A DNA stretch of 64,000 bases, taken from assembly GCA_051362555.1 (NCBI GenBank), contig CM120645.1:14756001-14820000 (forward strand), written 5' to 3'. Below, one piece after another: positions 269 to 60,300 of the stretch. The position numbers and the translations under genes are program-made. Position 1 is the first letter of the stretch, and each line of letters starts with the position of its first letter. The stretch comes from Lingula anatina (Eukaryota > Animalia > Brachiopoda). The notes beneath the pieces are model-generated. The model was not told the DNA's origin. It did no database searches and was given only the letters and a program-made list of their open reading frames with translations.

Positions 269-636
269 GACGTCATCCGTTACTATAGTGAAACGTAAAC
301 AAAAATAGGGAGTCTCGTTTGTTTACATTAAAAAAAATGTTTGTTTATTTTGTAAACATCCCCATTGTCCGGTATAGGTTTTCCATTGTTCAAATGATGT
401 AACATAACAAAAGAAAAAAGTGGAATTCTTTTCTCCCGTATAGTACGGATGTAACTACTCACACACACCTGTAGTGTGCCCACCACAAGCTCAGGAAAGT
501 TATTATTATTATTATTATTAATATTATTATTATTGCTACGTGGTGGGCTAACGCTCATTATATGCTTTTATAACAATAACAAAACAATTTTTGAGATCAA
601 TTTTCTATAAGGAAATATTTCCTTTATTTATTCCAG

Positions 637-10200: not shown

Positions 10201-13200
10201 TAAGGCGCACCGATGATTAAAAATTGAAAATCTTTGAAGCAAAAAATGCAGTGATTTATTTTAATTAAAATCTGAAATTTGTTCAAAAAATACAGAATTA
10301 AAATTGGCCGATCGAGATAAAAAATGTATTTATTGGAAGAATAAAATGCATGAGACATGATACAAATTTATCAGCTTACTACTTATCTCGGATATTTTTT
10401 CTGTCAAACAGATTGCTAAGAACATGTTAACCACCATCAGTAACGTTATGGACGCAGACGAGGAGGTTTTGCACGAGAGCAACGACCAATCGCACGCTGC
10501 AGAAAGGTAAGCCATCTATTGTTACTTGTAGAGCTTCATGTAAGCCCCCCCCCCCCCACCCCACCCCCATTTGTGGTGGGCCTCTGCAAAGTGTGATACG
10601 AAGACGTGCTCGTAAAATGTCTTGGTTTGCCATTTTCACGTTAACGTACACGCCACAGGAAGGACAGTTTAAGGCTTCTCCCTTTAGACTGAAATCCATA
10701 TAAACAGCAGTATTTGTAAGTTGCTCATATACATCGTACAATGCTGTCAGTGAAATCCATTGTTGTAAACATCAATACTTTTTAAAAGTTTATGTTTATT
10801 CCCATTGCTTCAGATTGCTCCAAGTTCTCGAGCACTTTACAGAGAGCGTCAACCTTACCTCTGTAAGTAAAATACAGCTTGAGTCCAGCAACATTGCCGT
10901 AGAGGCCATGGAAGTCCCTCTTCCAAACAGACGGGGTCCAGAGAATTCTGAAGAAAAAAATACAACACGTGGTGGAGTCAAAACACAATGGGTATAGTAT
11001 AAAATGCATTTCTCTTCTTGCCTACGGTGCAGTCAAGCTGGTGTACATATACATGTATATAGGCCGTAGAAGATTTAATGTTTTTTTTTCCTAATTTGCC
11101 ATGAGTGTCGGTGGTCAGTAAGGTAAAGCGGTAAATCGCGTTTTAAATAAATGGTCGAGGTCGAGTTTTTTTTTTTTTTTTTTTTTTTTTTGACTTTTTA
11201 TTTTATTTTTTATTTATTTTTATTGAAGTATTTTGGACATTAATTCGCTCCCCTTCCCACTCGTCTTACGTTTGTGCGTGTAGCTTTCATTATTAGAGTA
11301 GCCTACATGTTTTTATTGTGACGTCGTTACTTTGAATTAAGAGAAATTGACTTTTTCCCCGCACGGAAAGTTGCTACTCAGTCACTGCATTCCTTCTTCA
11401 ATCGGTCATCATCCAGCCTCCTTATTTTTCTTTTCAAATCAGAAAAACACCAGAATGTTCCTTCCCACTGAGGTTTTTGAACAGTCCGCGTCCGAGGCTG
11501 AAAACGTCAACGCAACAACTACGCGGGTTTCGTTCGTCTACTACGCTAACAGCAAGTTCTTCATGGAACATAACCATTCAGTGGAGAAATACGGGTCCCT
11601 GGAGAACAGAGGGGTGGTGGCGGCCACTGTGAAGAATACACGCATTCTGAATCTCACGGAGCCAGTGGTTTTCACTCTTCCGAATGTGGAGGTATAAAGT
11701 TGTCATTTTCAGCGCGCTTTCAGTTTTACTGATAATATAAGATTGTTAGTAGGGCAATTAATGTTTGGAATTAAATTGATTCCTCGGGGGTAAGAACATG
11801 TTTATTTTATATCATATTCTATGACCCATCAAATGAGTAGTTTGGTGGGTCCTAGCCCCATTTGGTAAGAGTCGTTGTATAAATGGATTAAGAAGGGTTA
11901 TTTATTATGCAAGATCTATATATCGATCAATACAGAACGTAGAGGATTTCATTCATGATCTAACGTTAACCACTTATCGTTTCAGGTCGGTGCCCCTCAC
12001 ATATGTGCCTTTTGGAATGCCACAGGTATGGGGTGGTGTTCGAAGTTTACATTCTGAATTTATAGTCTCGGAATATGCTGAGAAAAATACCACATTGTCA
12101 AGTCAAGTCGTTTCACAATTTTAATCGACTAATCCTTTAGTAACCCCTATTTTTTTCTACAATCGATGTCACGCTTGTGACTTCCGGGTAAAGGCATTGC
12201 CAGTTTTATTTGTGCTGTTATATCACTTTATTTCACCATATGGGACAATACTACTTTAAAAACGATAAACCATACTCGCACTATGCCATCCTATTACTCA
12301 TGTGAAAAACAGCACTTACCGGTACTTAGATTTCCACTGCATCTTTTGTATTTCCATTGAATTTATTAGTTATGGGTGTTAACCAGAACTTGGACTGCAA
12401 ATAAAAAGTGCAATGCAATCTTTCAGCGAGAGTGTGGTCCACTGACGGCCTGGAGGTCAACTCGACGGACGAGAATTCCACCACGTGCTTTTCTCGCCAT
12501 CTGACCAACTTTGCTATCCTGCTGGTAAGTTATATTTATCAGCTTAAAGCCTATGATTATGAATTTAAATTGCAACCAACCATTTTTCTAAAGACAGCAG
12601 GCGGATGCGACTAATTGCCGCGAAATTCTCCTTTAGAATGGCTTTTGATTGTGCTATTGATGATTGTGCTTTGTATTTTTAATGGATGGGCCCTCAAAAG
12701 ATACCATGTAAAGTGTCATTACTTATAATCCGTAGGACCGCCCATTAGTGATAAAAACCTTGTAAGCGTGAAACTTGTTATAGACCGAGTTACTTACCTG
12801 AACGTAGATATGCTCTGTCTCATCATTGGTAATGTTATCGACGGCGGTTTTGTTATTATTTTCAACTTATGACAGTGTGAAGAGTTAGGTTTGAAGGGGG
12901 AATATTGAAAACTCGAGTAACTAACAAAAAATAAATCACAATTTACTTTTGAGAAAAATGACAAAGCGCTTGGTCTTGATATGCTTTCTGCGCATGCGCG
13001 ACATGCAATTTTTATTTTAATATATAATATTTTTTATTTATTACCTGACATATTGTTGATATATTGCTATCAAAATAATAAATCAATAAATGTTAACTGA
13101 AAACAATGTTCATTTGGTAAATATGTTCATTGATTGTATTTTTAAACCTTCGCAAATGCAAACCCATTCATGGATAGGTGGCCTTTCTTCAGCTATTGCG

Positions 13201-16200
13201 ATAGCTATTATATATAAGAATGTGCATTTGCAATTTACATTTTCGAACTTGACCTGGTAAGCGTAAATCTTAGCAAAGGCTGAGTCGCTTGCAGGTTAAT
13301 TTGTGTAGACCCCCCATTCAGGACCGGGGTTGACAAAATATAGATATGGAATCCTTCACCAACATGGCCTTCAAATGTAATTGGAATGGGGCGGTGAAAG
13401 GGGCATGTCACCCCTTACAACGATAATCGGGCTTAGTATGAATTTATTATACTCCAGATCACTATTTCCTTAGTAACAGAGCCTGGACTTTTTACAAACG
13501 ATGTTAATTAGTTTTTATATCTAACGGAGTGTGATGTTTTTTATCTCTGTCTCCCTCGGTCTTACCCCTAACAATACACGGTACTTTGTTACCAGTGACG
13601 GTTGAATTAGGCAGGTGAGCTACAATTTGCCCTTACCTTGCATGGAGGGGGTAATGTCCATTCATGGACATAATAAGAGACTCCTATTTAGGTCCAAGGT
13701 CCATTGCACTACATTTAATTACCCTTTCGCTAATAAAAGTGTGGAGAGTTGCATTTAAAGGAGGATTATCAGAAGAGTTTAAAAAATGAATTTAGATTCT
13801 GAAAAGTCCACTTCTAAAAAGGCCGAAAGTGTCATCCGATGCGTTCATGTCGTGCTTAAATTGTGCACGTATCAAGGTTGAAAATACCACATCATTCATA
13901 AGCTTATTCAATTATTTTTAAAATTAATAAACACTTGGAGATTAATTATCTATTCATATAATGACCAAACCACTATGTGCAAGATATACACAAGCGCTAA
14001 GAGGACAATACACTAACACTGTTAGATTGCTCATTGCCACACATTCTGCATTAAGCCACGGCTTATTTACTCTGTCTGATATATTACTATCAAAATAATA
14101 AATCAATAAATGTTAACTGAAAGCAATGTTCAATTGGTAAATATGTGTATTGATTGTATTTTTAAACCTTCGCAAATGCAAATCCAATCATGGATAGGTG
14201 GCCTTTCTTAAGCTATCGCGATAGCTATTATATATAAGAATGTGCAGGTACAATCTACATTTTCGAACTTGACCTGGTAAGCGTAAATCTTAGCAACGGC
14301 TGAGTCGCTTGCAGGTTAATTTATGTAGACCCCCATTCAGGACCGGGGTTGACAAAATTTAAAATATAAGATCCTTCACCAACATGGCCTTTAAATGTAA
14401 TTGGAATGGGGCGGTGAAAGGGGCATGTCACCTCTTACAACATTAATCGTGCTTAGTAAGAATTTCTTGTACTGTGGATCACTATTTCCGTAGTAACAGA
14501 GCCTGTGGTTAGTAATACTAATTATAATAATTAATTGAGCAACGTGTGCAGTTACCTTTTTACAAGTTGTAAATTGAATTTTACATAAATTTTAATAAGC
14601 TTAAATAAGTATAACTACTTTAGATCATTATAATACCAAAATACATATTATGTAACTACTTCAGACATATAGCTCACAACAGTAAGACACAATCTTATAA
14701 TATTGGACATAACTTACTGTCTAAACCTGGCCACTGCTGATGCACTTGCACGACACTGTGCTTTTCGTCTGTAATTACAGAGCAAAAAATCCTCGTCTTT
14801 TTTATTTTCTGTAGTTGACCTGATAAGGTCCAAATGACCCGTAAGTAATTTATTGGGGAGGGGAAGGGAAGGGAGGGGGGCAGCTAGGTAACAAAATCCA
14901 GGGTCCGCCTGGTACTAACATCATAGATTGGAAAAAATGTGCATTTTCTTTATTTCCCCTTTCTTTTGCCAGGATCCTACCCCCAGTGAAGCCATTCCAT
15001 TGCAGCATCAGATATCCCTGGCCCTCATTTCATATATTGGATGTGGGCTTTCTCTCTGCGGCCTGGTGCTAACTATTCTGACTTACGGACTGTTTAGGTA
15101 TTTATGCATTACATTATTTTCTGAAGTGTATTTTTATTAAATGTTGATGAACATATGTATTGTCTCTTTAATAACGCGCTGTTTACATCATAAAGTAATC
15201 ATCACACCCATCCGTGCTTTTTTGCAAGTACCTGAACCAGAGCTGCAAAAGAGGGTACAATGTAATGAAATAGTGATGACACAGATCCTATGTGCGTGCA
15301 AGCTGTATAATTGCTGCTGTTCAAAATTTGGTACAATTTGTATCTAAGAGTGATTCTAAATTCACGTCTAATGTACGTTGTTATCAAAATAGGTGTCTCC
15401 ATGGCGACAACTCGGGCAAAATCCTGATCAATTTATGCGCCTCCATGCTGCTGATGAATATAACTTTCGTGGCGGGCACTGCTAGATCAGTGTCAGGTAA
15501 GGGGATTTATTTTTGTGAATTTCAATGAAATAATGACATTTCCCTGATGCATAGGTAGCACTTTTTTGTTAGGCAGGTGAAAGATATAATGAAAAGACAG
15601 GGTGTGTTAAGTTGGCCACTGGGCGCTGTTTTAAAGTTGGACGATAATTCATTTTATCCGTCCGAGTTTGTAAGAATCTGAATTTGAAGAAACCGTGTGA
15701 GGCCTTTTTATTATTGTATTTGTAACTTCAGATGCCGAGGTCGTCTGCACAGTTGTTGCAGTGCTACTGCACTATTTCACCCTGACGACCCTGATGTGGA
15801 TGTTAGTGGAAGCAGTGCACATGTACCGGCTTCTGGTGAAGATATTTAGGACTTACGAGCCTCGATTTATGCTAAAGAGACTCCTGATCGCGTGGGGAAT
15901 CCCCCTGATAATTGTCGGAGTAACAGTCGGGATTAACGTGGACAACTATGGCGGAAGGGATGATCTGTGAGAAACCAATATTTATTTCAGTGTTTTCTTT
16001 ATAATTGATGTTGATCCTATTTTGTTTAAAATTTATCGAAGCTCCTTCTCACAATTGCAAAAGCAAAATATGGATTTTTAGTAATCTCGAATGTCTGTTT
16101 GGCTCTCTGTCTCTTATAAAGCACCACAGTACGTTTTAATGGTTATAATATTTTTGAAAGGAAAATGATTTATCAAGATGTATTTTATTTCTTTATTTTC

Positions 16201-16900
16201 TTTTTATAGGTGTCGACTAACCAGCGCCAACCCTTACGTCTACTATATAAGCTTTTTGGGACCCTCGTGTTTGATACTTATCTTCAACTCCGTCGTGTTT
16301 GTATTGGTGTCAAGGGTCATTCTGCGACCTCGGGTCAAAGGTCTTCAAGGAAAAAGGAGTCAAGAGCAGCCGAAGGTGTCCGCTGCGCAGGTCCGCGGCG
16401 CAATTTCCGTTATGGTGCTGCTGGGCATCACCTGGGTGTTCGGTGCATTCGCTGCAGGGGAAGCAAAAGTCGTCTTCGCTTACATCTTCTGCGTTGCGAA
16501 CTCTCTCCAGGGATTCTTAATTTTTCTGTTCAGATGCTTGCTACACCCTGAGGCTCGAAGCGCCTGGGTCCAGCTGGTGACCACGGGAACTTTCAAAAAG
16601 ACGCGATCTCGCGCTTCCTCGCGAGCAAGTTCGGGAGAGCACACTAACTCCCACAATAGTAATCATGACAACAGGAGGACCTTTAAAGAAACTTTTACAA
16701 CAAATAAAATTGTAAAAAACACCAACGTGTGGCACAAGGCCAGAAGGTTTTCCAGCGATTCGGACGAAAAAAATCTAAAACCTCTGAAATACCACGACAT
16801 TAATCTATCATATACATTTGAGGATAAATTCGACAATCCTTTGTTTAAAGCATTAAACAATAGTCCGTCTATGGCTGGTCCAGATGACACGAAACTTTGA
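637..16900 (+). CDS. Adhesion GPCR (cadherin-FN3-EGFx~39-HRM-GAIN/GPS-7TM), 5'-incomplete; 17 exons: 637-1263,1497-1790,2122-2715,3175-7131,7906-8142,8649-8783,9299-9492,9794-9934,10412-10506,10814-10991,11443-11691,11986-12025,12427-12524,14973-15097,15393-15496,15732-15966,16210-16900
   Basis: All exons have AG/GT boundaries and the phases join in frame. Cadherin motifs ([19 protein letters not shown]), FN3 (W..P....GY.V.Y), EGF repeats, HRM (C...FVWPKS...C..G.....RRC......W.....EQC), GPS (CAFW...WSTDG...HLTNFAILL), secretin-like 7TM ([42 protein letters not shown]), C-terminus DDTKL. The donor at 10991 is weak, so a small exon may be missing there. Confidence 0.92.
3175..7131 (+). CDS. 3957-nt single exon encoding about 31 tandem EGF-like repeats with many N-x-S/T sequons
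   Basis: ORF 3048-7169; recurrent C..NPC.N.G.C......Y.C.C..G..G..CE pattern, counted by hand; phase 1-1 boundaries. Confidence 0.95.
11986..12524 (+). CDS. GPS motif split over two exons (11986-12025, 12427-12524), autoproteolysis site HL|T and Stachel TNFAILL
   Basis: [46 protein letters not shown]. Confidence 0.9.
12740..12800 (+). pseudogene. Decayed copy of the Sm-site small RNA family (no Sm site or 3' hairpin)
   Basis: gtaagcgtgaaacttgttatagaccgagttacttac resembles the family hairpin; a ggccctc element lies 73 bp upstream of GTAAGC (77-78 bp in intact copies A and H). Confidence 0.45.
13144..13218 (+). promoter_or_regulatory. Putative snRNA-type promoter of copy A (octamer-like GCAAATGCAAA, GGCCYT element, TATA-like); equivalent modules precede copies B-I
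   Basis: The GCAA(A/T)T motif starts at 13152, 14172, 18435, 19083, 20031, 21304, 22242, 23051 and 24180, always 100-107 bp before the donor-like site. Confidence 0.65.
13234..13331 (+). ncRNA. Sm-site small RNA candidate, copy A (in GPCR intron)
   Basis: attttcgaacttgacctg|GTAAGC at 13257; hairpin ACCTG.TAAGCG/CGCTTGCAGGT with inner CTTAGC/GCTGAG; Sm-like AATTTGTGTAG 13298-13308; 3' hairpin ACCCC/GGGGT. Confidence 0.72.
14254..14350 (+). ncRNA. Sm-site small RNA candidate, copy B (in GPCR intron)
   Basis: Near-identical to copy A at offset 1020; donor-like GTAAGC at 14277; AATTTATGTAG 14318-14328. Confidence 0.72.
14973..16900 (+). CDS. 7TM (family B2/adhesion) domain and cytoplasmic tail, 4 exons
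   Basis: Seven hydrophobic segments with adhesion-GPCR signature motifs; stop TGA ends at 16900. Confidence 0.93.
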
Positions 16901-18514
16901 ATTCCTGTGTTTTTCGACAGAATTTCTACCCAAAGACAATTATTAGTTAATATACCTGGGCATCAGTATACCGGTACCGTTTGACAGTTGGAAGCAGTTT
17001 TATGTCAGAGGCGAAAGTCACATAAGAAATATAAGGACATAACACGGGCGGTTAGGTTTTTAGGAATTTATAGTTATCTGAATAAACGTGTTAGTTCACA
17101 CCAACATGTAAGATATGTATTCTGAATCTCAAGTGAAGCAATATCATAGCAACTTTGTATATACATGTACTTCTCGTAAATGCCAAAATGTTAAGTAACT
17201 ACTATTAATTACTATTTATTATTGTTGGTGCCATCATTACTTTTTAATGCGAAGTGATCAATACATATGTATATGTTGATTAAACTGTCGTCTTAGTGCT
17301 AGTTACGATGTATCATTACACAGGAAAAAAAGACGTTCAAGAAATCCAGTTGAGCATTTTTCTAATCCAAATACACTACTCAGTATATTTGTACATACAC
17401 TGTATGATATGTTGGGTATCTATATTGACTTAATTAACGTACTGGGCACGTGTGCTGCGTAATAAGGTGCATTTAAATGATTTTTTGAACAAGACACTCT
17501 CTACCAGTCGTGAGGTCGTGTAGCAGTTACAAATTGTACAGATTTCTATACAATTTTGTAACAGGTAGAAAACCTCTGTTAGAGAGTCAGTAGTCACTCA
17601 GTCAGAGACCTCCGACAAGGCTGTGCTTGGAAATAACCTTGAATAATAATGCGATTACATGAGATAAGTTTTCAACACGGGGTAGCAGGCACCAATCTGA
17701 TAGCACACTGTACAAATAAAGCCCACCGTCTATCCCAGAGCAATCGAGCAAGGGCAAATAATACATAAATGGATGAAATTGTAAGCCAATAGATCAAAAG
17801 CAAATCCAAAACGACCCAATCAAACAGAAAGAATGTTTATTTTCTATAAGCAATGTTTCAGAATTTGTTAAGAGGCATAGACTGTATTTATATTTTTAAT
17901 TTAAGAATTTGAATAAACGTTTAAAACTGAGCCGAAATGTTTTTCTGTGTTGTTTGAAAGAGGGGGGAGTGTATTTGGGTATGTCTCACGCTTCTTCTAA
18001 TACTAATACCACTGTGGAGCTGTATAATAATCAATCAGTGTACTTCACCAGAAGATAGCTTCGGCTTGAAACTCAAAGGAGCGATTATTGTAATAAAGAT
18101 CTGTAAAGGAATGTGATATTTTTGTCTCCGTCTTCCTTGTTTGGTACAGTTTAGGGGAAATGACCATACTCTTATTTAATTTATACTCTTTGCTAATGAC
18201 TTTTTAAAGAGCTGGGGAAAAAACCAAAGTAAATGATCCTTTCCTGAGAAAGGAACAGAATGTGTTTGCGCATGCGTCAAATTACAATTCATAGTAATTC
18301 ATATTTGCAAATATTTCTGTAAAAATTGTGATTATGACATTTTTTTAAAATATCATAATAATTTATTAATATATTGCAATTGTAATTATATGTATTGGCT
18401 AAGAATTCTTTTTTAAGTATATTTGAATTGCTATGCAAATATATATCTAAGCACGAAGTAAAAGCCCTTCATAACATAACGCAGATTATACATATAAGCT
18501 AACCAAGTACTACA

Positions 18515-18599
18515 AACTCTCTTAATGCATGTTCCTGGCACGGACCCGCCTAACCGTGCACAAAAGATTATTTTGTGGGTCTCTATTAACCCCAGGGAC
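18515..18599 (+). ncRNA. Divergent Sm-site small RNA candidate, copy C
   Basis: Same upstream motifs (ATGCAAAT 18433, gcccttc, TATA-like) and spacing; cctg|GCACGG/CCGTGC hairpin 18538-18559; ATTTTGTGG 18570-18578; 3' hairpin GTCTCT/AGGGAC. Confidence 0.55.
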
Positions 18600-19164
18600 T
18601 GACATTGACGCATATTGACACCATAATATAACTGGAGTAGTAAACGTTGTTAAGCCGCACAACTATTCCCAAAGCAAATGGGTCTCATTGTATAGGCGTT
18701 TGTCACCTTTGTACGCCATTTATACGACCGAATCTTGTATAACTGCGAGCGACGTTACTGCGTCCACTGTTCCCTCTAACAGGGCCACACACATTGATAT
18801 TTCACTAGATATTAACAGATGTGTCCCTGGTTTAATAGATAGCTAGTCTCTGGCTCTGGCTAAATGGCTCGCCTTAGCAAAAATGTTCACAATAATAACT
18901 GCGGCCGTGGTAGAGGGCATGTCCCCTGTGCAACCCTACTATATCATTTATATGTTTATTCAATCACTTCTAAAGTTATTAAAATTAGCTCAGTTAAATA
19001 TCAAAATTATAAGTTAAAATTTAGAAAAAGTAAATTGCACAAACTGATTAGAAATTATGTTTCAGTATATTTTCATAGCTTTGCAAATGCAAATTTAATC
19101 ATCGATAGGATAATAATGATAATAAGATATCAATGTTGGTAAAAGTATCAAGATGCCTATATGT

Positions 19165-19255
19165 CGGTGCTGTTATTCAAACGTAAGCGTAAATCTTGGC
19201 AATAGGCCGAGTGGCTTACGGTAATTTATGGGCGGCCCCGGTGGTCAATGGGGCC
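19165..19255 (+). ncRNA. Sm-site small RNA candidate, copy D
   Basis: CGTAAGC/GCTTACG outer stem, CTTGGC/GCCGAG inner stem, AATTTATGG 19223-19231, GGCCCC/GGGGCC 3' hairpin. Confidence 0.72.
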
Positions 19256-20114
19256 ACAGTTAAAGTAAATAAAAAGCAAGATATACATAAGATGTCAGCT
19301 GCAACCAATGAGATATTTTAATTTATGGCACTTTACGAAGAGTCAATGTGTAAAAGAGGTTTTGGGTTACAGCTCGTGGGGCAAAAGTGTGGTTAAAAGT
19401 GAATGGTCGTTTAAAACTGGTCTGATAACGATTTAAAAACAATTGAGGAAGTTTTAATAAATATCTATAACGGAATGTGATCTATTCATCATAAACATGC
19501 ATGGTTAAACATAATATCTGGCACTGGCTAGATGGCTTGCCTCAGCAAAAATGTCCACAATAATGACTGCTGACCTGGTAGAGGGCACGTCCACTGTGCG
19601 TTCCCTGTGCAACCCTCAGCACAAATTGCGACGTTCGAGCTCGTAACCGTAAACTAATGATTCGTCGGTTGGGTTTCCATTGCTTTGCTCGGAAGGAGAA
19701 GTGTCCATATACTTCATATATTAAAACTTTCTAGTAAAGACAGTGTAAGGAGTTAGGGTACAAGGGGGGGATTGCAAAAGAAGTTCAAGAAGAAATGAAT
19801 GAAAATGAAATCAACTTTTGGGAAAGACAGGAAATTCCAGTTTAGGCAGTCTTATAAGATAACTAAAATATGCTTTACGCATATTGGCCATGATAAGACA
19901 TTGAACCTTTTGCATTTTATTTATTTTTTGAAAGCATTTTGGTCAATATCAAATTCATATGTCAATATAAAATAACAAGAAGCTTTGCTTATATTGTCTG
20001 CAATGCATTAACTGCAATTTTTGAAGCTTTGCAATTGTTAATATAATCATTTAACGTACGGCCCTCGACAAAGTATCGCGGCTGCTATAATTTGAACAAC
20101 GTCAGCTGTTTGGA

Positions 20115-20209
20115 CAGATTTGCCAATATATAGACTGGCGAGTGTAAACCTTAGCATAGGCTAAGTGGCTTGCTAGAGAATTTATGGCAGCCTCTTTCTC
20201 TGCAGGGGC
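20115..20209 (+). ncRNA. Sm-site small RNA candidate, copy E
   Basis: CTGGCGAGT/GCTTGCTAG outer stem, CTTAGC/GCTAAG inner stem, AATTTATGG 20179-20187, GCCTCT/AGGGGC 3' hairpin. Confidence 0.7.
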
Positions 20210-21386
20210 ATGCAAGTTACTTAAAAAGGAATGCGTAAATTTTCATGTTGTGCATGAGAAGGTTTGATTTGTGCGTGTCCCTGTATGACAGCGTGTTTGC
20301 GAAGTTTAGGTTACTGCATGTGAGCTAGGATATTTCGGATCCTAGATGTGAGAAATCCGTAAATTCCAATTGTAAGACAAACTAACCGTGCCCAGGGGGA
20401 GTAAAAAGTATAAAGAAAAATGCAGTGAGCAGTCTCAATACTTACACGAAGAAGTGCGTATTCATTTGAACAGTGAATCGAACACGGCCAAGTACTCAGG
20501 CATTAGGGCTATTTATATATTCAATGAGTATTTACACGTAGAATCATCGTTTTATATGACATACTGGGTAGAATCATTATTTAAAATAAATCTTGAGTTG
20601 ATAACAAATATTTCATTTATTTACACTTTTATACTTATGACAGAGTTAGGTTTTAATGAGTGATTTTTAAATACAATTTTTTTTTTTTAAAAAAAGCACG
20701 AGTGAAAAAACTGAAATGGAATTAAAATCTACCTCTGAGTAGGTAGAAAATGTTATCCTGTGTGGTTTTAATATGCTTTCAACGCATGCGCCAAAATTTG
20801 CACATGACGTCTTTTTTTTATAACAGCTACGGATTTTTGAGGAAAATAAAAAGGAGAGGATTTTTTGCTCTGTTTTATGGTTATATTTCAACTTTTGGGT
20901 CTTTGGAGTCACTTCCTATTCTGTGTTAATACAATGGGCGTTAACCCATTGTTCTAATTCACAACCTTGTTTGGGTAAACACATTTTACCAGGGATGAAT
21001 AACTCCTTCATATTTTTCAACCTAATAGGTAAAATAATTGATTCCTATTGCGTAATATGGTGTCATTTCCTTTAACCATAAAAGGTGGGGAGAAAAAGCG
21101 ATAGACCTTAGACGGGCCCAAGGAAAGTTCTCTAAATTATCGTACGGTACCGTACATGTTGTACTTTCGAGAAAGGTAAAGATACCATTCTATCAGTCTT
21201 GATAATCATCGATTTTTTAATATCTAAATTATAAAGTAATATATTTTAACTATAATCTGCATTTGTTAAGCGTATAATTACATACAAAAATTTTTAAAGC
21301 TTTGCAAATGCAAATCTATTCATTACATGAACGGCCCTTCATAAAATGGTGCGAGTGCTAAAATATACACCATGTTTCCGGAGGTT

Positions 21387-21481
21387 GAACGGTTTTCTAA
21401 TTTGAGCTGGCAAGCGTAAAACTTGGCTTAGACCAAGTGGTTTGCTAGTGAATTTATGGGAGTCCCATGCTCAACTGGGAC
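21387..21481 (+). ncRNA. Sm-site small RNA candidate, copy F
   Basis: CTGGCAAGC/GTTTGCTAG outer stem, ACTTGG/CCAAGT inner stem, AATTTATGG 21451-21459, GTCCCA/TGGGAC 3' hairpin. Confidence 0.72.
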
Positions 21482-22323
21482 AAAATAATAAAAAATCAAT
21501 TAGTTCTAACCTGTAACAGAGTTAGTTTTATGTATGCAGTATGGCATAATACTAAAACACGAGTTAAAAACTATAAAACATATTGATTTTGAAATTAATT
21601 ATATTGAAACGTCTACTTGTGTGATTGCAGAAGATGTCACCCCGTGTGCTCTACCTTTAGTTTCAACGCAAGCGCCTAAATTTAAACATGATATTTTTTT
21701 TTATTTGTAATATAAAACCCTGTGGCTATTGTGCAAGGTAGCGGAAACGTTCAAATTAGCTCACGAGGTAAGGAGCTCGGGTATCTTGCTCCATTTTTCT
21801 TTTAATGTATCGACTTTAAAAAATGTCCGGGAATTATGCCTGATCATGATGTCCTGGCTACGATAATAGCATTGGTTGGCTTTTCCCCAACGTTTTGTAC
21901 ATATTCCTATCAATATAAACAAGCGCTAAGAGGACAATGAAGCAGCACTGTTATATTGCTCAATGCCACACATTCTGCATTAAGCCACGGCTTATTTACC
22001 CTGTCGACATAGTGCCTTGTTTGCATGACCTCCGTAATTGTAATGGCGAGAAAGGTAGAAATATCATTTCGCTATAGTATTGATAGGCACTGTGCGCATG
22101 CGCCACGATGAAAGAAACTTTTTTATCTTTTATCAAATAAAGATAAACATATTTTTAATATCCGAATTATAAAATAATACATTTCAACCAAGGGCTGCGT
22201 TTGTAAAGCATACAGTTATCTGCGTGAATTTGTAAACCTTCGCAAATGCATATCTATTCATAGAATGACCACACTATATAACATAGCGCGATATCTAATA
22301 TATGAACCATTTTTCTAACACTT

Positions 22324-22418
22324 CGGCGGTTTTCCAATTTAAGCTGGCAAGCGTAAAACTTGGCCATGGCTAAGTGGTTTGCTAGTGAATTTATGGGAGC
22401 CCCATGCACAACTGGGGC
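22324..22418 (+). ncRNA. Sm-site small RNA candidate, copy G
   Basis: CTGGCAAGC/GTTTGCTAG outer stem, ACTTGGC/GCTAAGT inner stem, AATTTATGG 22388-22396, GCCCCA/TGGGGC 3' hairpin. Confidence 0.72.
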
Positions 22419-23133
22419 AGAAGATATGAATGTTAGAACAGAAATCATGACAACAAAAGCAGTCTATTCCTCAATTATGTTATGGACCATTATGAAATTC
22501 ATGTTCTTATATTAAGGAGGTGTAAACCCATGTTATTGTTTGCGATGTACTAGATTGTTTTTTCTCCAAACCCAAAGCTTGACTGCGCTATGCTAAAGTA
22601 TAACTATTGAAATAAGTCTTAAGGTGTAAGTATATACACGCACCCTGTACTCATTCAGTGAACCGAACTCAGCTATCATTAGTGCTTCTGCACTCAGGCT
22701 ATTTATAGAGTCATTCAGCTGGTATAATACGTAATAAAATAAAGCTTTAAGATACGTCTTGCGTTTTCAGCAAACATTATAATTCATTCATTTACTTTAA
22801 GGGGATAATTGAAATGACAAAAAAAAAAAAAAAAAAAAAAACGATTTACTCATGAGAAAAACAGAAAATGTCACCCCACTCTTCTTCCATTGCATTCTCC
22901 GCGATTACTATATTCTTACTGTGTTATAAATTGAACTTAAAATACATATGAAAATATTTTTTTAATTTTCAAAATGATTGGATAATAAATCTCAATGCTA
23001 CACATTGATAGTTTTGTTTCTAATTGTATTACTTATATTTTTAAAGCTTTGCAAATGAAAATATAATTACGGATAGATGGCCCTTAGGGATATCACGGGT
23101 TGTTGTATAAATAATACGATATCGTTGTCAAAC

Positions 23134-23225
23134 TGCTGATTTTCGAACTTGACCTGGTAAACGTAAATCTTAGCAAAGGCTGAGTAGTTTACAGGTTAAT
23201 TTATGGAACCCCCAGACCATCGGGG
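23134..23225 (+). ncRNA. Sm-site small RNA candidate, copy H
   Basis: tgctgattttcgaacttgacctg|GTAAAC at 23157; ACCTG.TAAAC/GTTTACAGGT stem; AATTTATGG 23198-23206; CCCC/GGGG 3' hairpin. Confidence 0.72.
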
Positions 23226-23503
23226 CTAATATGTAAAAATACCCATATCCAAGCTTTGCTCTGTTCAGATTAACGGTGCGTTAGAGTAGTATGTTAGTGA
23301 TTACTTGACCAAAACACTTACCTAATCTTGGGACACTTCCTACTGTATTTTCTTGGTTTTCAGTTTCGTTTACAGTTTATTATAACCTGGATGACGTAAT
23401 CCATGTTTTCCATACTAAAAATTGAGCGAATTCGCAGTATTCGATTTATGTTTTTACATAAAATATCGCACTGATGCTTTTCCTGATGATGTGCGTGGTT
23501 TAC

Positions 23504-23536
<33 letters not shown>

Positions 23537-24262
23537 TCGGTGTGTATGGTTTACGTATGTGTGTTTTCCTGATGTTGTGCGTGGTTTACGTGTATGTGTG
23601 TTTGTGTGTGTTTTTGTGTGAGCGCACGTATTGTGTAAAATAAGTGAAGTTCCAAGCTACGACAATGTTTTCTAAAATTAAATAAAAGTTTTAAAGAGCA
23701 AACCGTAAAATTCGCTAACTACAATGTATAACGACATTAGACCAGATTGGTGATTGGCCTGGAATGGCTACCCTGAGTGTCAAAGCAAGGAAAAAGCTAG
23801 CTTGTTAAATATTATACCTTGTGATGGAGTCGCTTTTACTGGCTCTGACGAACAGCGACAATCCTACAGTTGGTATAATACGTAATAAAATAAAGCTTTA
23901 AGATACGTCTTGCGTTTTCAGTAAACATTATAATTCATTCATTTACCTAAAGGGAATAATTGAAATGACAAAAAAAACGATAGACTCATGAGAAAAACAG
24001 AAAATGTTACCCCACTTTTCTTCCATAACATTCTCCGCGATTACTACACTGTCTTATAAATTGAACTTAAAATACATATGACAATAATTTTTAATTTTCA
24101 AAATGATAAGATAATAGATCTTAATGCTACACATTGATAGTTTTGTTTCTAATTGTATTACTTATATTTTTAAAGCTTTGCAAATGAAAATATAATTACG
24201 GATAGATGGCCCTTAGGGATATCACGGCTTGTTATATAAATAAGACAATATCATATTTGAGG

Positions 24263-24357
24263 TGCTGATTTTCGAACTTAACCTGGTAAGCGTAAATCTT
24301 AGCAAAGGCTGAGTAGTTTACAGGTTAATTTGTGGAGACCCCCTGACCATCGGGGTT
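24263..24357 (+). ncRNA. Sm-site small RNA candidate, copy I
   Basis: tgctgattttcgaacttaacctg|GTAAGC at 24286; AATTTGTGG 24327-24335 (identical to the U1 Sm site); ACCCC/GGGGT 3' hairpin. Confidence 0.72.
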
Positions 24358-25878
24358 AATATGTAAAGTATGATGTTATCTATAAGAAATACCCTTATCC
24401 TAGCTTTGTTCTGTTCAGAATAACGGTACGTTAGAGTAGTATGTTAGTGATTACTTGACCAAAACACTTACCTAATCTTGGGACACTTCCTACTGTATGC
24501 ATTTTCTTGGTTTTCAGTTTCGTTTACAGTTTATTATAACCTGGATGACGTAATCCATGTTTTTCATACTTAAAATTGAGCGAATTCACAGTATTCGATT
24601 TATGTTTTTACATAAAATATCGCACTGATGCTTTTCCTGATGATGATTTTCCTGATGATGTGCGTGGTTTACGTGTGAGTGTGTGTGTCGGTGTGTGTGG
24701 TTTACGTATGTGTGTTTTCCTGATGTTGTACGTGGTTTACGTGTACGTGTGTTTGTGTGTGCGCGCACGTATTGTGTAAAATAAGTGAAGTTCCAAGCTA
24801 CAACAATGTTTTCTAAAATAAAATAAAAGTTTTAAAGAGCAAACCGTAAAATTCGCTAACTACAATGTATAACGACATTAGACCAGATTGGTGTTTGGCC
24901 AGGAATGGCTGAAGTTATAATGAAATATTTTACCACATCATGTCTTCTCTTTACAGTATCGAGTAGTTAAAGATGCATACAAAGTCAATTTTTTGTCACA
25001 AAAACCAACCAAATGCCAGCATATAGTTTCAAGTAGTATAACTAAGAGAATCACCAAAAGGCATTGTTTAATTTTACCCGAAAATGATGTTTGAACAGAT
25101 TTTTCTGCAGGCATTCTAAGCTGTATCTCAATGGGGCAGGAAAGTAGGTCACAGAAGTAGGTTAAATTTACAACCAAAAATTTAAAGAAAGGAGCAGTCT
25201 AAAGGTCTTTTATGGCTGATCGAGTGATCTATTCAGTTTATCCCTTGGCATGTCAAATTAATTTGAGTCATATAAGAATCTAGTAGAAGTGGTTTTCATG
25301 TGTTACTGGGAATCCAAGCTCCACCGATGCTCGGTTCGTATGTACCTTTAACATCTTATGTTGGATCTAAAGGTTTCACGAAAAAAAAATGACTCATTCA
25401 TTTTGTACGTTTTTATTCTCTGATAATAGGAAAATATAAGGAAATCATACTATTAATTACAGTGTTATACCCGATATATCTATCTGGAAGAATACTAGCT
25501 CCTATTAGTGATTATAACCATCTATATGAATACTTTCAATTTTTACCACACTACTAACAACACTTTTCAACACCACTTACGGCACCAAAACGCACCGACA
25601 ACTTATGGCCATGAAAGTATTCTACCGCCATTTTAAAAACTGTTTCAGGAAAGTTAACGTTAAAGTCATACAGGCAATACGACATGATGTAGACACGTAA
25701 TTTACAAGTTCTTTGCTGTATACAGTACACAAGGTTTACTTCCTATAAACTTTCTTATGGCCTTAACCATTTGATTTGCCTCTCATACTATTTAAATGGA
25801 CGTCTGGACTGGATATGATACATCACAGCTGTAACGAATGAAGAAAGTTGCGTCACTTCTGAGAAAATCTGATGGAAG

Positions 25879-52700: not shown

Positions 52701-55700
52701 CTTCCCATAATACAACAGCAATTGTTGATGTAACAATCATCAATATCTTCCCATAATACAACAGCAATTGTTGATGTAACAATCATCAATATCTTCCCAT
52801 AAAACAACAACAATTGTTGATGTAACAATCATCAATATCTTCTCATGATACAACACCAATTGTTGATGTAACAATCATCAATGTCTTCCCATAATACAAC
52901 GGCAATTGTTGATGTAACAATCATCAATATCTTCCCATAATACAACAGCAATTGTTGATGTAACAATCATCAATATCTTCCCATAATACAACACCAATTG
53001 TTGATGTAACAATCATCAATATCTTCCCATAATACAACACCAATTGTTGATGTAACAATCATCAATGTCTTCCCATAATACAACACCAATTGTTGATGTA
53101 ACAATCATCAATGTCTTCCCATAATACAACACCAATTGTTGATGTAACAATCATCAATATCTTCCCATAATACAACAGCAATTGTTGATGTAACAATCAT
53201 ATCTTCCCATAATACAACAGCAATTGTTGATGTAACAATCATCAATATCTTCCCATAATACAACAGCAATTGTTGATGTAACAATCATCAATATCTTCCC
53301 ATAAAACAACAACAATTGTTGATGTAACAATCAACAATATCTTCCCATAATACAACACCAATTGTTGATGTAACAATGATTATTGCCTTCCCATAATACA
53401 ACAGCAATTGTTGATGTAACAATCATCAATGTCTTCCCATAATACAACACCAATTGTTGATGTAACAATCATCAATGTCTTCCCATAATACAACAGCAAT
53501 TGTTGATGTAACCATCATCAATATCTTCCCATAATACAACAGCAATTGTTGCTGTAACAATGATCAATGTCTTCCCATAATAAAACAGCAATTGTTGATG
53601 CAACAATCATCAATGTCTTCCCATAATACAACAGCAATTGTTGATGTAACAATCATCAATGTCTTTCCATAATACAACAGCAATTGTTGATGTAACAATG
53701 TCTTCCCATAATACAACTGAACAGCAATTGTTTTATGTCACAATGATCAATGTCTTCCCATAATACAACAGCAAATGTTGATGTAACAGTCATGGTAAAT
53801 ATCTTCTCATAATACAACAGCAATTACTGATGTTACAATACTCTGCTTATTCCCATAATACAGCAGTATTTGTTGATGCATCATGTTTAATATGTTTTCA
53901 TAATACAATAGCAATAAATAATAACAGTAGCAATTGTTAAATTTATAAATCAATGTAATTACAGCTCCCTTTACCCAGTTGCAATATCATGAATACAAAG
54001 AAATATCATCTTTGTCAATATAATATTTTATCCACTTTAATCCTTCCTATCCACTGAGCACTGAATCTTTTCTTAATAAAAATACATAGACCTACCTTGT
54101 TGCTTTTCATAGGCACTTTGCTCATTAATTTCTCCAGCACATTTGTTGTCTTAGGTTTCCCCCCAGATTCTGGACCACTTTCTTCTGGCTTCTCAGATAC
54201 ATCTGCAAGTCAGTGAAAGAAATGAGTGACATTTTGACAAATACGTTACAACTGCTAAATAAAATAAATCCTTAAACAAAACAAGGCAGCAAAGCTGTCA
54301 AATGTACAGACAAAAAACAGAAAAAAAAAAGATGCAAAAGAGGTCATTTTGTCAATTTTGATGCAACAATAAATAATGCTTATAATAGCAGTCAGTCAAC
54401 ACTGATTTTTCATTATGCACAACAGGTAACATGGTCAATAACAGGAGCAGATCCAGAAATATTTTTGACAGTATTCTAAAGTATCTTTATTGATCCATCT
54501 TCCATTTTGATGGTCTTCCAAAAGAAAAAAATAGATACCCATCAATATAAAAAATCTAACTGTCTTCCAGGAGACCCAGAAGATGGTCTCAATCCACCCC
54601 TTCAATAAGATTATAGTTTCATGACCATGAGAGTTAAAATTCACATGATGAAAGTCCCAATATAAGAAAAATGATGACAGTGCATAAAATAATATTACTA
54701 GTGTTTAAAGACATGAATACCAATACAACTGCTTACGTGGAAATACAGAAATTGTGCAGAGCCTCAGGTGGATGGGAAAGTCACATCTTAAAAATGCCAG
54801 TGTTGGAGAAGAAATTAAAAAGAAAACAACAAAAATATAATCTAATGAAGCTGCTATTCAGTGCTTCCTTATTATGGACACTGTTATCTAGCAGAGAGCT
54901 TAACCTTTGGGAGTTTACAGGGAAATATCAACAAGTGTGATTTATGAAATCTCATTTAATGGCCACTTAATCAGGCAAATGAGTTTATAGCACTAAACTT
55001 AGCCTAGTGAATACCCAAGGGGAATTTACAGACTGACCACACAAATTTGTCCCATAAGACACAGCTTAAGAAAAGCACAAAACAATAATGCACAAAAATA
55101 GGAGACTGCCAATTCTGATGCAATAGTACATTATGTTTAACTGCACAGTCAATATCAAATTTTAATTATGCAGAACAGGTAACAACGACGAAAGTAAAAG
55201 CATAAGGCTTCAGGTCCATCAAAGTTCAAATTTACAATTAGAAAGAGCCAGAATGAGAAAAATGAAAATTTAACACAAAATTGCATAAATTCAATGATAA
55301 ATGATAACCCAATTGAGCTGGCTTTCTAATTTGAACTGCATGCCAATCCTAAAAATCATACTTGTAAGTTAAACATAATAATAAGTAACACAGTTTTCTT
55401 TCCATAATGTTTGCAGAAGCAGTACAAAAATATTTTTGTCAATTTTGATGTAACATTACATAATAATTTATAGAATAATGATCACCAATTTTTTATTATT
55501 GACCATTCGGCTTCATGTCCATGGGAGTTCTGAGTCCCACAATGAATATGCCAAAAAGATAATAATGAATATTTCACTAAAATGTATAAATTCCAGAAAA
55601 AGAAGCCAATTAGACTGCTTTTCCAACTTTTTTTGAAAAGTTGAGTCGTAAGTAACATGATTTTCCCATAATGGTCATCATGGCAGCAACACCAAAAATT

Positions 55701-57317
55701 ATGTTTTCTTCTATTTTGATGCAACATTACATAATGTTTAACAGCATAATGACCATCAATTTTTAATAATAAAATATTAGTATCATGGATATTCAGAAAA
55801 TGTGACTAGCAAAGGTCTTCAAGCCCGTGGAGGTTCTAAGTCACACCTTGAAAATGCCAATAAATGAATAATTAAATTTTTACAAAAAACTGTTTAATTG
55901 CCAGAAAAATTTACCAAACAGACTGCATTGCCTACTGAAGCTATATTTTAGTCCCATGTATCTTTCCTGTAAGTTTGAGAACAGTGAGTGATATGATTTT
56001 CCTTAAATGATCATCATGGGAACAGTGCCCAAAATAGGGGTTTCTTCAAATTTTGATGCAATATTACATAATGTTTAACAGCATAATGACCATCAATTTT
56101 TAATAATAAAATATTAGTATCATGGATATTCAGAAAATGTGACCAGCAAAGGTCTTCAGGACCATGGAACTTCAAAGTCACATCTTGAAAATGCCAAAAT
56201 GTAAACAAGACAGCACTTTTCTGAAATGGGTTTATTTCCATTTTTAACACTTTTTTAACATAAAACAAAATTAACAATTAACTGCCATTTTTATATGACC
56301 AACTAATAAAATTGATGAGATGGGGAAAATATCAATAGAACAGTGTTAAATGTCCAATTTCCTCCATCTAAGATTCTGAACATAGTGGATGATTGAATAT
56401 GACAAATTGCAATGATATGTGTTTATTTCCAGTTTTGACACTTCATTACACAATACATGATAACAAATTTACCATCATTTTTACATGATCAACTGACAAT
56501 GTTGTAAAGATGCAGGAAATGTCAAACAAACACTTTTATGTATCTTATTAGTTCAATAATGAGACTATTAACATGCCTAAGAATTGAATCTGAGGAAATG
56601 TAAAAAAAAAGAATAACTTCTAAAATAATGGACCGATTATGCTGATTTTCATACTCAACCTATGTTTTAGTAAGATTGACCACTCTTGTGAGTAAAATGA
56701 CAATTTGCCTATCTGTTTTTCCTATATTGTATTATCAGTGTTGTATATATGCTAAAAAAATGAAAAAACAGCATAACTTCTATAAAAGTGGCTCTATCAT
56801 GCTGTTTTTCAAACTTGACCTGCGTATTATGAAAATTCATCAGTTCTGTAAGTTTCAAGCCAAAAGGTAAAATGGTATTTCACATATCGTGTTATCGGTG
56901 CTGCATATATGCTGAGAAAAGTGAAATAAAGATGCAAATAAGTGAAAAATTAAATTTTCACAAAAAACTGTTAAATTGCCAGAAAATTTTACCAAACAGA
57001 CTGCGTTGCCTATTGAAGCTGTATGTTAGACCCATGTTTCTTTCCTGTAAGTTTGAGAACAGTAAGTGACATGATTTCCCTCAAATGGTCATCATAAGAG
57101 CAGTGCCCAAAATAGGGGTTTCTTCAAATTTTGATGCAACATTACATAATGTTTAACAGCATAATGACAATCAAATGTTATTAATAAAATATTAGTAACA
57201 TGGACATTCAGAAAATGTGACAAGCAAAAGTCTTCAGTATCATGGAACTTTAAAGTCACACCTTGAAAATACCAATATGTGAAAAATTAAATTTTCACAA
57301 AAAACTGTTTAACTGCC

Positions 57318-57348
<31 letters not shown>

Positions 57349-60300
57349 CAAACAGACTGCATTGCCTACTGAAGCTGTATTTTAGTCCCATGTTTCTATC
57401 CTGTAAGTTTGAGAACAGTAAGTGACATGATTTTCCTTAAATGGTCATCATGGAAGCAGTGCCCAAAATGGGGGTTTCTTCAAATTTTGATGCAATATTA
57501 CATAATGTTTAACAGCTTAATGACCATCAATTTTTAATTATAAAATATTTGTATCACAGATATTCAGAAAATGTGACTAGCAAAGGTCTTCAGGCCCATG
57601 GAACTTCAAAGTCACGCCTTGATAATGCCAAAATGTAAACAAGACGGCACTGTTCTGAAATGGGTTTATTTCCATTTTTAACACTTTTTTTAACATAAAA
57701 CAAACATTTTACTGCCATTTTTATATGTCCAACTAAGAAAATTGATGAGATGGGAAAAGTATCAATAGAACAGTGTTAAATGTCCAATTTCCTCCATTCT
57801 GAGCTTCTGAACATAGTGGATGATTGAATCTGACAAACTGCAATGATATGAGTTTATTTCCATTTTTGACACTTTATTACACAATACATGATAACAAGTT
57901 TACCATGTTTTTTACATAATCAACTAACAATGTTGTAAAGATGCAGGAAATATCAAACAAACACTTTTAGGCATCTTATTAGTTAAATAATGAGACTGTT
58001 AACATGCCTAATAATTGAATCTGAGGAAATGTGAAAAAACAGTATAACTTCTTAAGTAATGGCCCGATTATGCTTATTTTCGAACTCAACCTGTGTTTTA
58101 GTAAGATTGACCACTCCTGTGAGTATAATTACAATTGGCCAATCCGTTTTTCTTATATTGTGTTATCAGTGTTGCATTTATATTGAAAATAGTGAAAAAA
58201 CAGCATAAATTACCTAAAAGTGACCCGATCATGCTGATTTTCGAACTTGACCTGCGTATTATGAATATTCATCAGTTCTGTAAGTTTCAAGTCAAAAGGT
58301 AAAATGGTTTTCCACTTATCGTGTTATCGGTGCTGCATATATGCTGAAAAAAGTGAAAAAACAGCATAAATTCCCTAAAAGTGACCCGATCATGCTGATT
58401 TTCGAACTTGACCTGCGTATTATGAATATTCATCAGTTCTGTAAGTTTCAAGTCAAAAGGTAAAATGGTTTTCCACTTATCGTGTTATCGGTGCTGCATA
58501 TATGCTGAAAAAAGTGAAAAAACAGCATAAATTCCCTAAAAGTGACCCGATCATGCTGATTTTCGAACTTGTCCTGCGTATTATGAATATTCATCAGTTC
58601 TGTAAGTTTCAAGTCAAAAGGTAAAATGGTTTTCCACTTATCGTGTTATCGGTGCTGCATACATGCTGAAAAAAGTGAAAAAACAGCATAAATTCCCTAA
58701 AAGTGACCCGATCATGCTGATTTTCGAACTTGACCTGCGTATTATGAATATTCATCAGTTCTGTAAGTTTCAAGTCAAAAGGTAAAATGGTTTTCCACTT
58801 ATCGTGTTATCGGTGCTGCATATATGCTGAAAAAAGTGAAAAAACAGCATAAATTCCCTAAAAGTGACCCGATCATGCTGATTTTCGAACTTGACCTGCG
58901 TATTATGAATATTCATCAGTTCTGCAAGTTTCAAGTCAAAAGGTAAAATGGTTTTCCACTTATCGTGTTATCGGTAAAAGTGCACGGCGACGGCGACGGC
59001 GACGACGACAGCGACGACGGCGACGACAGACGCAGATGATGGCTATATGTACAGACACATCTGTGTCTGTACATAATAAAAATTGCATATTTCCTAGCTA
59101 AATGAGTACCTTTTATGCCATTGCACCTGAAAAAGAAAAAAAAAAAAAAGAAAATGACAGCCAAAACCACTAATCATATGCATTACTGGTAATGTTTTTC
59201 ACAACTTTCTGCAATATGTTCAACATTTTTCCCCCTCTCAAATTTACTTATAAAGTTCTGTCACCCAGTGTGCAGTCCTCTAGGTTCAAATTGTCTTAAC
59301 TATCATGTACAACTGAAACACTGTACATCTGAAACATCAGCTAGCATAGCATTCTGAAGAATCTACTCAATTAAACAGACACTAATCACTGTCAATGATT
59401 CTATATCTAGTCCATCATATTGTAATATGTATTGCTCTGAACATCTCATTCACATAGGCTAAGCATAAAATAGCTAGCAGTAAACTTAATATCCACTCAA
59501 ATAGGTTGCATTATAAACTTAAAGTTTAGAATAAGGATAGAAAAGCCTATACACACCTACCAGTGCTGCACTTGTAATATACAGGCTACAAATATACATA
59601 TTCATATATAAATAGTTCATGGCATATATTGGAGATATGTCACGTCTTAATAGTGAGCATAACAAAACTGCCCTAATTAGAACACTTTACCCTATATAAT
59701 CATTGCAACATTTGTTGTACCTTTCTTAGAAAAGAAATTCCTCTCCAAGGAATGGTACTTGTTGTCTGTTGATGACCTTGACCTTGTCATTGGTGGGTAT
59801 CGCATCACCCCATCATAATGTTGGCCTGGAGTAAAGTAACACTTAGCGCAAAATGTCAGAGATGGGAAGGAAAGTTTTCAATTAGTTTAGGTATCAAATT
59901 CAAAAGTTTTTCTATTGCCTAAGGTTTTTATCAATCTGAATTTAATTATTTCTATATATAAAATATCTTATATATCTTTATATACAAAAATTCATATAAC
60001 CTTTGACGAAACCTGACAGATATGTTATACACTTGCAAGATTTTACAAACTATAGTCTAAATTAATTTTTCATATATCAAAAAAAAAAAAAAACATGCGT
60101 CAGGACAACATTTAAATAATACAGATTGCGATAAATTCACCCAACATGTGTGCACATGATACAACAAAAAGTGATGTATTTTGGAACAAGAAAGCAAAAC
60201 ATTTCAGGGTCTGAAAAAATGTCAGTGTCTTAAAACTGTGCCCATAAGTGCACCATTCAGGACTGAGATTAAATATTTTTTTAATATATTAAGGGAGGAG

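Follow-up and report, generated by a model that had tools for sequence, protein, structure and literature searches.

Predicted Sm-type small RNA genes of Lingula anatina and their relation to a repeat box in a HINE transposon

The precedent for a small RNA combining a 5' guide, an Sm site and a hairpin is found in U7 small nuclear RNA (snRNA; PMC12360213). Here we describe a cluster of genes encoding predicted Sm-type RNAs of about 95 nucleotides (nt) in a 64-kb stretch of the genome of the brachiopod Lingula anatina (contig CM120645.1, positions 14,756,001 to 14,820,000; in the following the window), whose 5' segments match a conserved box in the repeats of a HINE, a non-autonomous element of the Helentron type. 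The analysis is based on the window, on RNA-seq reads mapped onto it and on the literature. The units are predicted to share with U7 a single-stranded 5' segment that would pair with a target RNA, an Sm site, the 3' hairpin and a 3'-extended RNA polymerase II (Pol II) precursor. They differ from U7 by an additional hairpin ahead of the Sm site, by the existence of many paralogs with different guides, by their predicted target, which is a transposon repeat and not histone pre-mRNA, and by the lack of the AAUUUGUCUAG site, which is present in none of the nine units, as had been noted in a previous reading of the sequence alone (the sequence-only reading).

HSUR2 is an RNA of the Sm class. This small RNA is an adaptor that base-pairs with target transcripts, as proposed for the units, but it is viral, pairs by variable regions instead of one 5' guide and recruits microRNAs (PMC6763288). 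Spliced-leader (SL) RNAs of the schistosome type (PMC12582326, PMC7986045) resemble the units in their length of 78-103 nt, their occurrence as clustered paralogs, a large hairpin with a GU in its internal loop, an interrupted Sm-like site and a downstream hairpin, whereas in three of eight units the donor with which the 5' segment ends is GC, and the segment itself corresponds to a transposon box. Unlike nematode SmY RNAs (PMC11229312), the units carry a variable 5' segment of 14-22 nt and find no match in Rfam. The snRNA:LU of Drosophila (PMC4053861) is similarly a lineage-restricted Sm-class RNA with its own promoter of the proximal sequence element type, covarying stems and a location in an intron, as in case of the first two units described here. 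It differs in being essentially a single gene, of 116 nt, with demonstrated trimethylguanosine cap and Sm association, whereas the units are predictions, and no repeat-matching 5' segment is described in the relevant part of that paper. On the side of the transposon, the elements HINE, pearl and DTC84 (PMC7492417, PMC3879986, PMC4067079) share with the putative target the subterminal inverted repeats (subTIRs), an inverted repeat (IR), a microsatellite, a 3' palindrome and core repeats of about 160 bp with low-variability segments, which the passages on these repeats either leave unexplained or ascribe to chromatin proteins or rearrangement, with no RNA partner being named.

A family of predicted Sm-type RNA genes

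The sequence-only reading had proposed a cluster of nine co-oriented units with an Sm site, termed u1 to u9 in Table 1. Eight of them are found as described, whereas u3 has a different body, and a relic copy has to be added. The GTAAA loop was correctly assigned to eight units and is absent from u3. A degenerate pattern combining this loop, the inner stem and the Sm-like site matches the window eight times and none of 100 shuffled sequences. A covariance model built from seven units recovered the left-out u4 (55.6 bits, E 9e-10) and the relic at 12742 (E 0.02), did not match u3 (18515) even at E<=5 and had no match below E 0.5 outside 12742-24360. The eight GTAAA units fold with z values of -1.6 to -3.3. 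Their stems were proposed to vary in sequence while maintaining pairing, and the two central helices are indeed paired in 95 of 96 cells. Among ten distinct non-majority pair states one is broken, compared to 5.7 expected (P=0.001), and in a seven-unit alignment both sides have changed in 6 of 20 pairs, a value reached in 2 of 500 shuffles, which ignore relatedness. Pair counts on another alignment (A4) were set aside because it contains chance matches fitted to the model. The spacers had been regarded as mostly unrelated, which is incorrect for u1/u2 (430 nt at 92% identity), u8/u9 (923 nt at 88%) and u6/u7 (272 nt at 76%). The units thus represent only about five lineages.

Across these five lineages, identity peaks at an upstream motif (0.88), at the loop (0.87) and at the Sm-like site (0.84) and drops to about 0.25 in the downstream flanks, and in the upstream block it amounts to 0.72-0.88 compared to 0.20-0.28 at 140-200 nt further upstream. 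The distance from the upstream motif to GTAAA is 118-120 nt in seven of the eight units and 113 nt in u4. The Sm-like site, AATTT(A/G)TG in all eight, is located between covarying stems and is interrupted instead of being a plain U-run. With respect to signals for RNA polymerase III, no unit contains a B box and one of the eight contains an A-box pattern, and T4 occurs within 45 nt downstream of the RNA in two and within the 5' segment in six. Genes of the Pol II type, to which the units are predicted to belong, contain neither an internal B box nor a T-run terminator after the 3' hairpin. The octamer ATGCAAAT, present without deviation in u2, u4 and u6 and with slight deviations in other units, adjoins the putative proximal element rather than being located far upstream. 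The motif and the upstream block of the family also precede u3, but its first hairpin is different. This unit may belong to a separate family, or its target may be located beyond the window. The 5' end of u3 holds the CUCU that is named for U7 guides in a passage of PMC12360213.

Rfam scans gave no gathering matches for the window and, for the cluster and for u1, u3, u4 and u6, only weak unrelated matches with E values of 0.2 or worse. A possible origin from U5 or U1, to which there is some resemblance, found no support in Rfam. SmY identity was rejected in light of the brachiopod host, the lack of an Rfam match and the nematode-specific occurrence of SmY described in the text of PMC11229312. 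Marks of a short interspersed element (SINE) or a miniature inverted-repeat transposable element (MITE), namely dispersed copies, a B box or a poly(A) tail, were not detected within the window, where the confined model matches and the homology reaching into the upstream promoter argue against such an identity. Of the findings that the sequence-only reading had named as arguments against it, neither an Rfam match nor a dispersed SINE or MITE unit was encountered in the window. Its proposal of a selected, diversified family of novel Sm snRNAs is partly supported, in that the structure, the promoter spacing, the negative Rfam result and rare sense reads speak for such a family of Sm-type small RNA genes outside Rfam. 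We regard the eight units as a new family on the known chassis of Sm snRNAs. A strict unit pattern had no match in metagenome contigs, a relaxed one had at least 120 metagenome loci (18 of 64 parts scanned) and 10 viral loci, and none of these 130 loci reached a model score better than E 0.47, and the 22-nt box was not found in viral contigs. Since these collections are poor in animal DNA, the searches say little on distribution. In the open-access literature, which leaves subscription papers uncovered, we found no description of such a family, of trans-splicing in brachiopods or of snRNAs that serve as guides to the repeats of transposons, and the main text of the Lingula genome paper (PMC4595640) does not mention trans-splicing, operons or snRNA.

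Evidence for transcription comes from six of nine RNA-seq runs selected by their Lingula species label: X1-X3 (poly(A)), X4, X5 and the unstranded X7. Reads from X1, X4, X5 and X7 were mapped to 12600-23350, with u9 outside, and a second mapping of 46 million records was directed to u4 only. At u4, all 11 read pairs are sense, with X1-X3 lacking a strand calibration on a known gene. Ten of the 11 begin inside the unit with nothing upstream and one begins upstream, and the ten pairs from X1-X3 leave zero depth across the 160 nt at 19020-19179. These reads, though few, show transcription of u4 in the predicted direction, which mostly starts inside the unit. In run X1, depths in the direction of the mRNA of the adhesion G-protein-coupled receptor (GPCR) gene hosting u1 and u2 (the direction being as in X4 and X5) are 0.34 at u1, 1.33 at u2, 1.56 at u4 and 0.70 at u7. 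The same run contains no reads of the receptor gene and has an opposite-direction depth of 0.1 at u1. X4 covers u4 alone among the units, X5 covers none and X7 shows traces at u3 and u4. As calculated from bins, the 5'-most starts at u4 are 19189, 19191 and 19189, thus twice at the G of GTAAA, and those at u1 and u2 are at about 13257 and 14276, which in these three units is 19-23 nt past the predicted start and could reflect library loss, a cleavage releasing the guide, or splicing. Stretches of leader length were not placed by the mapping: the shortest separately mapped pieces were about 35 nt long, and the u8 bin is free of reads despite its 23-nt match to the repeat. The spacer that separates u3 from u4 harbours a short dispersed repeat (18788-18917), which attracts reads on both strands from many other loci.

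Correspondence between the 5' segments and the HINE box

The relation to a transposon, which is new here and had escaped the sequence-only reading, surfaced when exon-only copies of these segments were looked for, which led to a repeat at 55-59 kb, at a distance of 30-35 kb from the cluster. All 23 letters of u8 at 23134-23156 agree with the HINE box as present in four of the five 161-bp repeats, where 1.7e-9 such matches would be expected in 2x64 kb. This match begins one base ahead of the predicted 5' end and terminates exactly at the start of the hairpin. The segment of u9 agrees with the box at 21 of 22 positions, u1 and u2 contain 18-nt runs of identity (13239-13256 in u1), u4 matches the box variant at 56801 in 14 of 15 letters and u6 is predicted to pair over its full length with the variant at 55317, including two G-U pairs, at -27.4 kcal/mol compared to -27.9 kcal/mol for a perfect duplex. 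For comparison, shuffled 22-mers reach at best 17-19 of 22 in the window. On the level of sequence, the 5' segment of six of the eight units is thus complementary to the HINE box. Naked folds predict pairing of the 5' segment with the flank of the Sm-like site, resembling the structure near the Sm site that is depicted in part of PMC10584915. If the Sm-like site is held open, 11-16 nt of each 5' segment are predicted to be unpaired, and the net pairing of the six matched units to the box ranges from -12.7 to -32.6 kcal/mol.

The similarity is confined to the 5' segment. A hidden Markov model of the repeat aligns to u8 and u9 within this segment only, and no similarity to the monomer was detected in the hairpin body (28 comparisons, P 0.12-0.94) or in the 100 nt ahead of the units (7 comparisons, P 0.06-0.83). 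On these grounds, we reject the idea that a repeat monomer gave rise to the unit as a whole. Where u4, u5, u6, u7 and u9 deviate from the box, 12 of 17 derived letters are common to the best repeat variant, compared to 5.0+/-1.3 in the null (P 1e-5), with the register of u5 set by hand. This correspondence persists if one sister copy is dropped (P 0.0008 and 0.0001).

The element hosting the box qualifies as HINE by its sequence, which follows the plan of subTIRs, IR, microsatellite, central repeats and 3' palindrome described in PMC7492417 and also given in PMC4067079. Its diverged monomers were detected with nhmmer and the boxes subsequently placed in register. Within the monomer, the highest conservation of any 10-mer is found in the box (0.85 compared to 0.48-0.70), which is internal and in register in every monomer, and variant monomers are alike on both of its sides. 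In eight of nine variant boxes, the paired stretch begins with YAG, which is preceded by a branch-point-like motif at about 25-30 nt on the same strand. The forward strand of the element is the minus strand and coincides with the strand of three candidate coding exons, placing the element in sense orientation within an intron of a predicted minus-strand gene, and the small RNAs would thus pair with the element in host pre-mRNA. These exons were picked by eye, and a scripted exon search returned none.

The guide model and its alternatives

Since the 5' segment corresponds to a box in the transposon, it points towards a role of the predicted RNAs as antisense guides against HINE repeats in the manner of U7 or U1, for which we see about an even chance. 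The sequence-only reading had proposed no function. In such a mechanism, each gene would be transcribed from its snRNA-type promoter by Pol II with SNAPc and its product trimmed at the 3' end. An Sm ring would assemble on AAUUU(A/G)UG between the hairpins, thereby freeing the 5' guide, and a partner protein may bind the invariant GUAAA loop. The 5' segment would then pair in vivo with the box in nascent host transcripts and bring the small nuclear ribonucleoprotein (snRNP) to this site, where it would sit across the splice-acceptor-like YAG of intronic HINE repeats. The downstream effect, for which we favour a masking of this cryptic acceptor, is the weakest step, and masking has about half the probability of the guide role itself. 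Within the same model, the bound transcript could instead undergo U7-like cleavage or silencing. More tentative, and on balance somewhat doubtful, is the proposal of an Sm-snRNP guide library with one paralog per repeat subfamily, which would survey Helentron and HINE transcripts by blocking their processing or by U7-like cutting. If correct, it would constitute an RNA-guided surveillance of transposons on the chassis of an snRNP instead of Argonaute or PIWI proteins. The guide model as such would mean a family of snRNPs directed against the repeat of a transposon, with guides diversifying together with the repeat, of which we found no description in the open-access literature. It could also account, in a way open to testing, for the boxes of low variability within HINE and pearl core repeats, for which experimental evidence was said to be missing in a passage of PMC3879986 from 2013.

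Several observations weigh against this reading. In the window, u5 finds no convincing target (net pairing -4.5 kcal/mol), u7 finds partial matches only and u3 none (best 16 of 22), and the match of u6 at 17 of 22 letters equals the maximum of the shuffles. The paralog-to-variant correspondence is only moderately supported because P weakens under stricter nulls, in which u5 is omitted and variable positions are kept: with four units it is 0.002-0.008, and with three it is 0.01-0.07. The bins of u3, u5, u6 and u8 contain zero reads in the stranded runs X1, X4 and X5, and u4 accounts for just 22 of 46 million records. All reads at u4 extend beyond the predicted 3' end at 19258, the X1-X3 pairs to about 19300-19395. 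The single X4 pair starts near 19120, about 47 nt before the predicted start, and the 5' segment is absent from all ten pairs of the poly(A) runs, which lack the first 20 nt or so. In the repeat, the YAG is not preceded by a polypyrimidine tract, and the stronger splice-like signals, with GTRAGT about 25 nt past the box in eight of nine variants (55317-58920), are found on the plus strand, with which the RNA cannot pair. The HINE with the matching box occurs in a single copy within the window. Finally, sequence identity as such gives no direction as to whether the RNA tracks the transposon or the transposon the RNA.

Retroelements track the ends of tRNAs. By analogy, the units could be Sm-class RNAs with a different task in the host, such as a SmY-like scaffold acting via the GUAAA loop, whose 5' ends have been captured or are tracked by a transposon, such as for priming or docking on its displaced single strand. 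We consider this unlikely, yet it would predict the same exact match confined to the 5' segment, it is in line with the box being the best-conserved 10-mer of the monomer and with read starts 19-23 nt inside the units, as if a 5' piece had been cut away, and the invariant loop resembles a motif in the first, protein-binding stem-loop of SmY described in a section of PMC11229312. The internal position of the box, in register in every monomer and with similar sequence on either side in variant monomers, argues against such tracking, and the diversified 5' ends on one conserved body suit a set of guides better than a single host function. We know of no HINE that uses host RNA. Even less favoured, and quite improbable in our view, is the possibility that the units are decaying or inert chimeras, multiplied by local duplication, in which an snRNA promoter is joined to fragments of repeats. 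The relic, the three recent pairs of duplicates and the rarity of reads would be accommodated, but inertness fails to explain the compensated changes by which 95 of 96 cells remain paired or the identity of 0.7-0.9 in promoter block, loop and Sm-like site next to downstream flanks of about 0.25, and the body is not derived from the repeat.

An identity as SL RNA, which we regard as rather unlikely and slightly more so than the capture of host RNA ends, would imply that an exon of about 20-26 nt is followed by a first hairpin containing the donor, by an Sm site and by a 3' hairpin, with the repeat box as relic of the leader. Length, the large single hairpin, the interrupted Sm-like site and the downstream hairpin are as in schistosome-type SL RNAs, where the donor is located at the internal loop (both from the text of PMC12582326 on these RNAs). 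Donor-like sites are found 41 and 35 nt ahead of the Sm-like site, with an overall range of 34-41 nt and with 20-60 nt as the default of the program SLIDR, and the match to the repeat terminates exactly at the first of them (donor 1). The 5'-most fragments of u1 and u2 start no further than 1 nt from donor 1, and those of u4 start in two libraries at the G of GTAAA. However, donor 1 is GU in five of eight units and GC in three, where the partner base has changed to keep the pair, and it thus behaves as a position of the stem. Flatworm SL copies lacking the GU are read as pseudogenes in the respective part of PMC12582326. Donor 2 is GU in all eight but is preceded by C or T, and a relic ending there would run 6 nt past the match. 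The read starts differ in site between units, belong to 3'-extended RNAs and are also explained by ordinary loss of 5' ends in libraries, and the Sm motif differs from the SLIDR default AT4-6G. The lack of a report of brachiopod trans-splicing in the open-access literature also speaks against this explanation, which, if true, would introduce the process in this phylum.

Surroundings of the cluster

Table 1. Positions of the described features in the window. The 5' ends of the units are predictions, with the start of u1 set from promoter spacing.
Feature	Position	Strand	Description
u1	13237..13334	+	predicted RNA of about 95 nt; 5' segment to 13256, GTAAA 13263, Sm-like site 13298, 3' hairpin
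u2	14257..14353	+	GTAAA 14283; recent duplicate of u1, in the intron of u1
u3	18516..18600	+	22-nt 5' segment with CTG end; Sm-like site 18570; 3' hairpin
u4	19169..19258	+	14-nt 5' segment (box minus 8 nt), hairpin with GTAAA 19189, Sm-like site 19223, 3' hairpin
u5	20116..20212	+	GTAAA 20144
u6	21390..21484	+	GTAAA 21416
u7	22327..22421	+	GTAAA 22353; sister of u6
u8	23135..23230	+	GTAAA 23163
u9	24264..24360	+	GTAAA 24292; recent duplicate of u8
Relic copy	12742..12833	+	hairpin degenerate and promoter partial, Sm-like site and 3' hairpin absent; fold z 0.15
Promoter-like block of u1	13135..13217	+	octamer-containing motif 13145, GGCC element, TATA-like box
Equivalents of the motif at 13145	14165, 18427, 19076, 20024, 21297, 22235, 23044, 24173	+	
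HINE	54280..59080	-	whole element, by its sequence plan
HINE 5' subTIR and IR	59046-59075		
HINE GTC microsatellite	58984-59032		
HINE 3' subTIR	54301-54312		11/12 match; palindrome about 54286-54300
Target boxes in the five 161-bp core repeats	58233, 58394, 58555, 58716, 58877 (58233..58898)	-	22 nt each, plus-strand coordinates
Variant boxes in diverged monomers	55317, 55614, 55922, 56641, 56801, 57000, 57356, 58072 (55317..58093)	-	
Candidate coding exons around the HINE	62794-62852, 62412-62496, 54096-54202	-	picked by eye
Adhesion GPCR gene	576-16900		cadherin, FN3, very long EGF exon, GPS, seven-transmembrane (7TM) region
Mucin-like single-pass membrane protein gene	25879-28676 and about 35925-35995	-	probable signal-peptide exon further upstream

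With respect to the protein-coding context, u1 and u2 reside within one intron of the adhesion GPCR gene and the remaining units downstream of this gene, for which three of four RNA-seq runs contain spliced reads and expression. An NCBI protein of Lingula anatina shows 100% identity to the 7TM exon of this gene at 16211-16897. The first stretch of the gene in the window shows just 90% identity to the database protein, compared to 100% for the 7TM exons.

The HINE repeat is regarded as having a wider spread in other animals, and a protein search with a repeat-encoded frame aimed at such copies returned no match. Several of its monomers contain TTTTAG on the plus strand, 17 nt ahead of the box, which together with GTRAGT forms a microexon-like pattern. 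A second HINE-like element at 46680-49400, with an inverted repeat at about 46680-46705, a TCCGCCGGC microsatellite and a 146-bp repeat present about 12 times, provides no good match to the 5' segment of any unit. A minisatellite of 46 bp forms two arrays, at 44329-44876 (12 copies) and 52099-53915 (40 copies).

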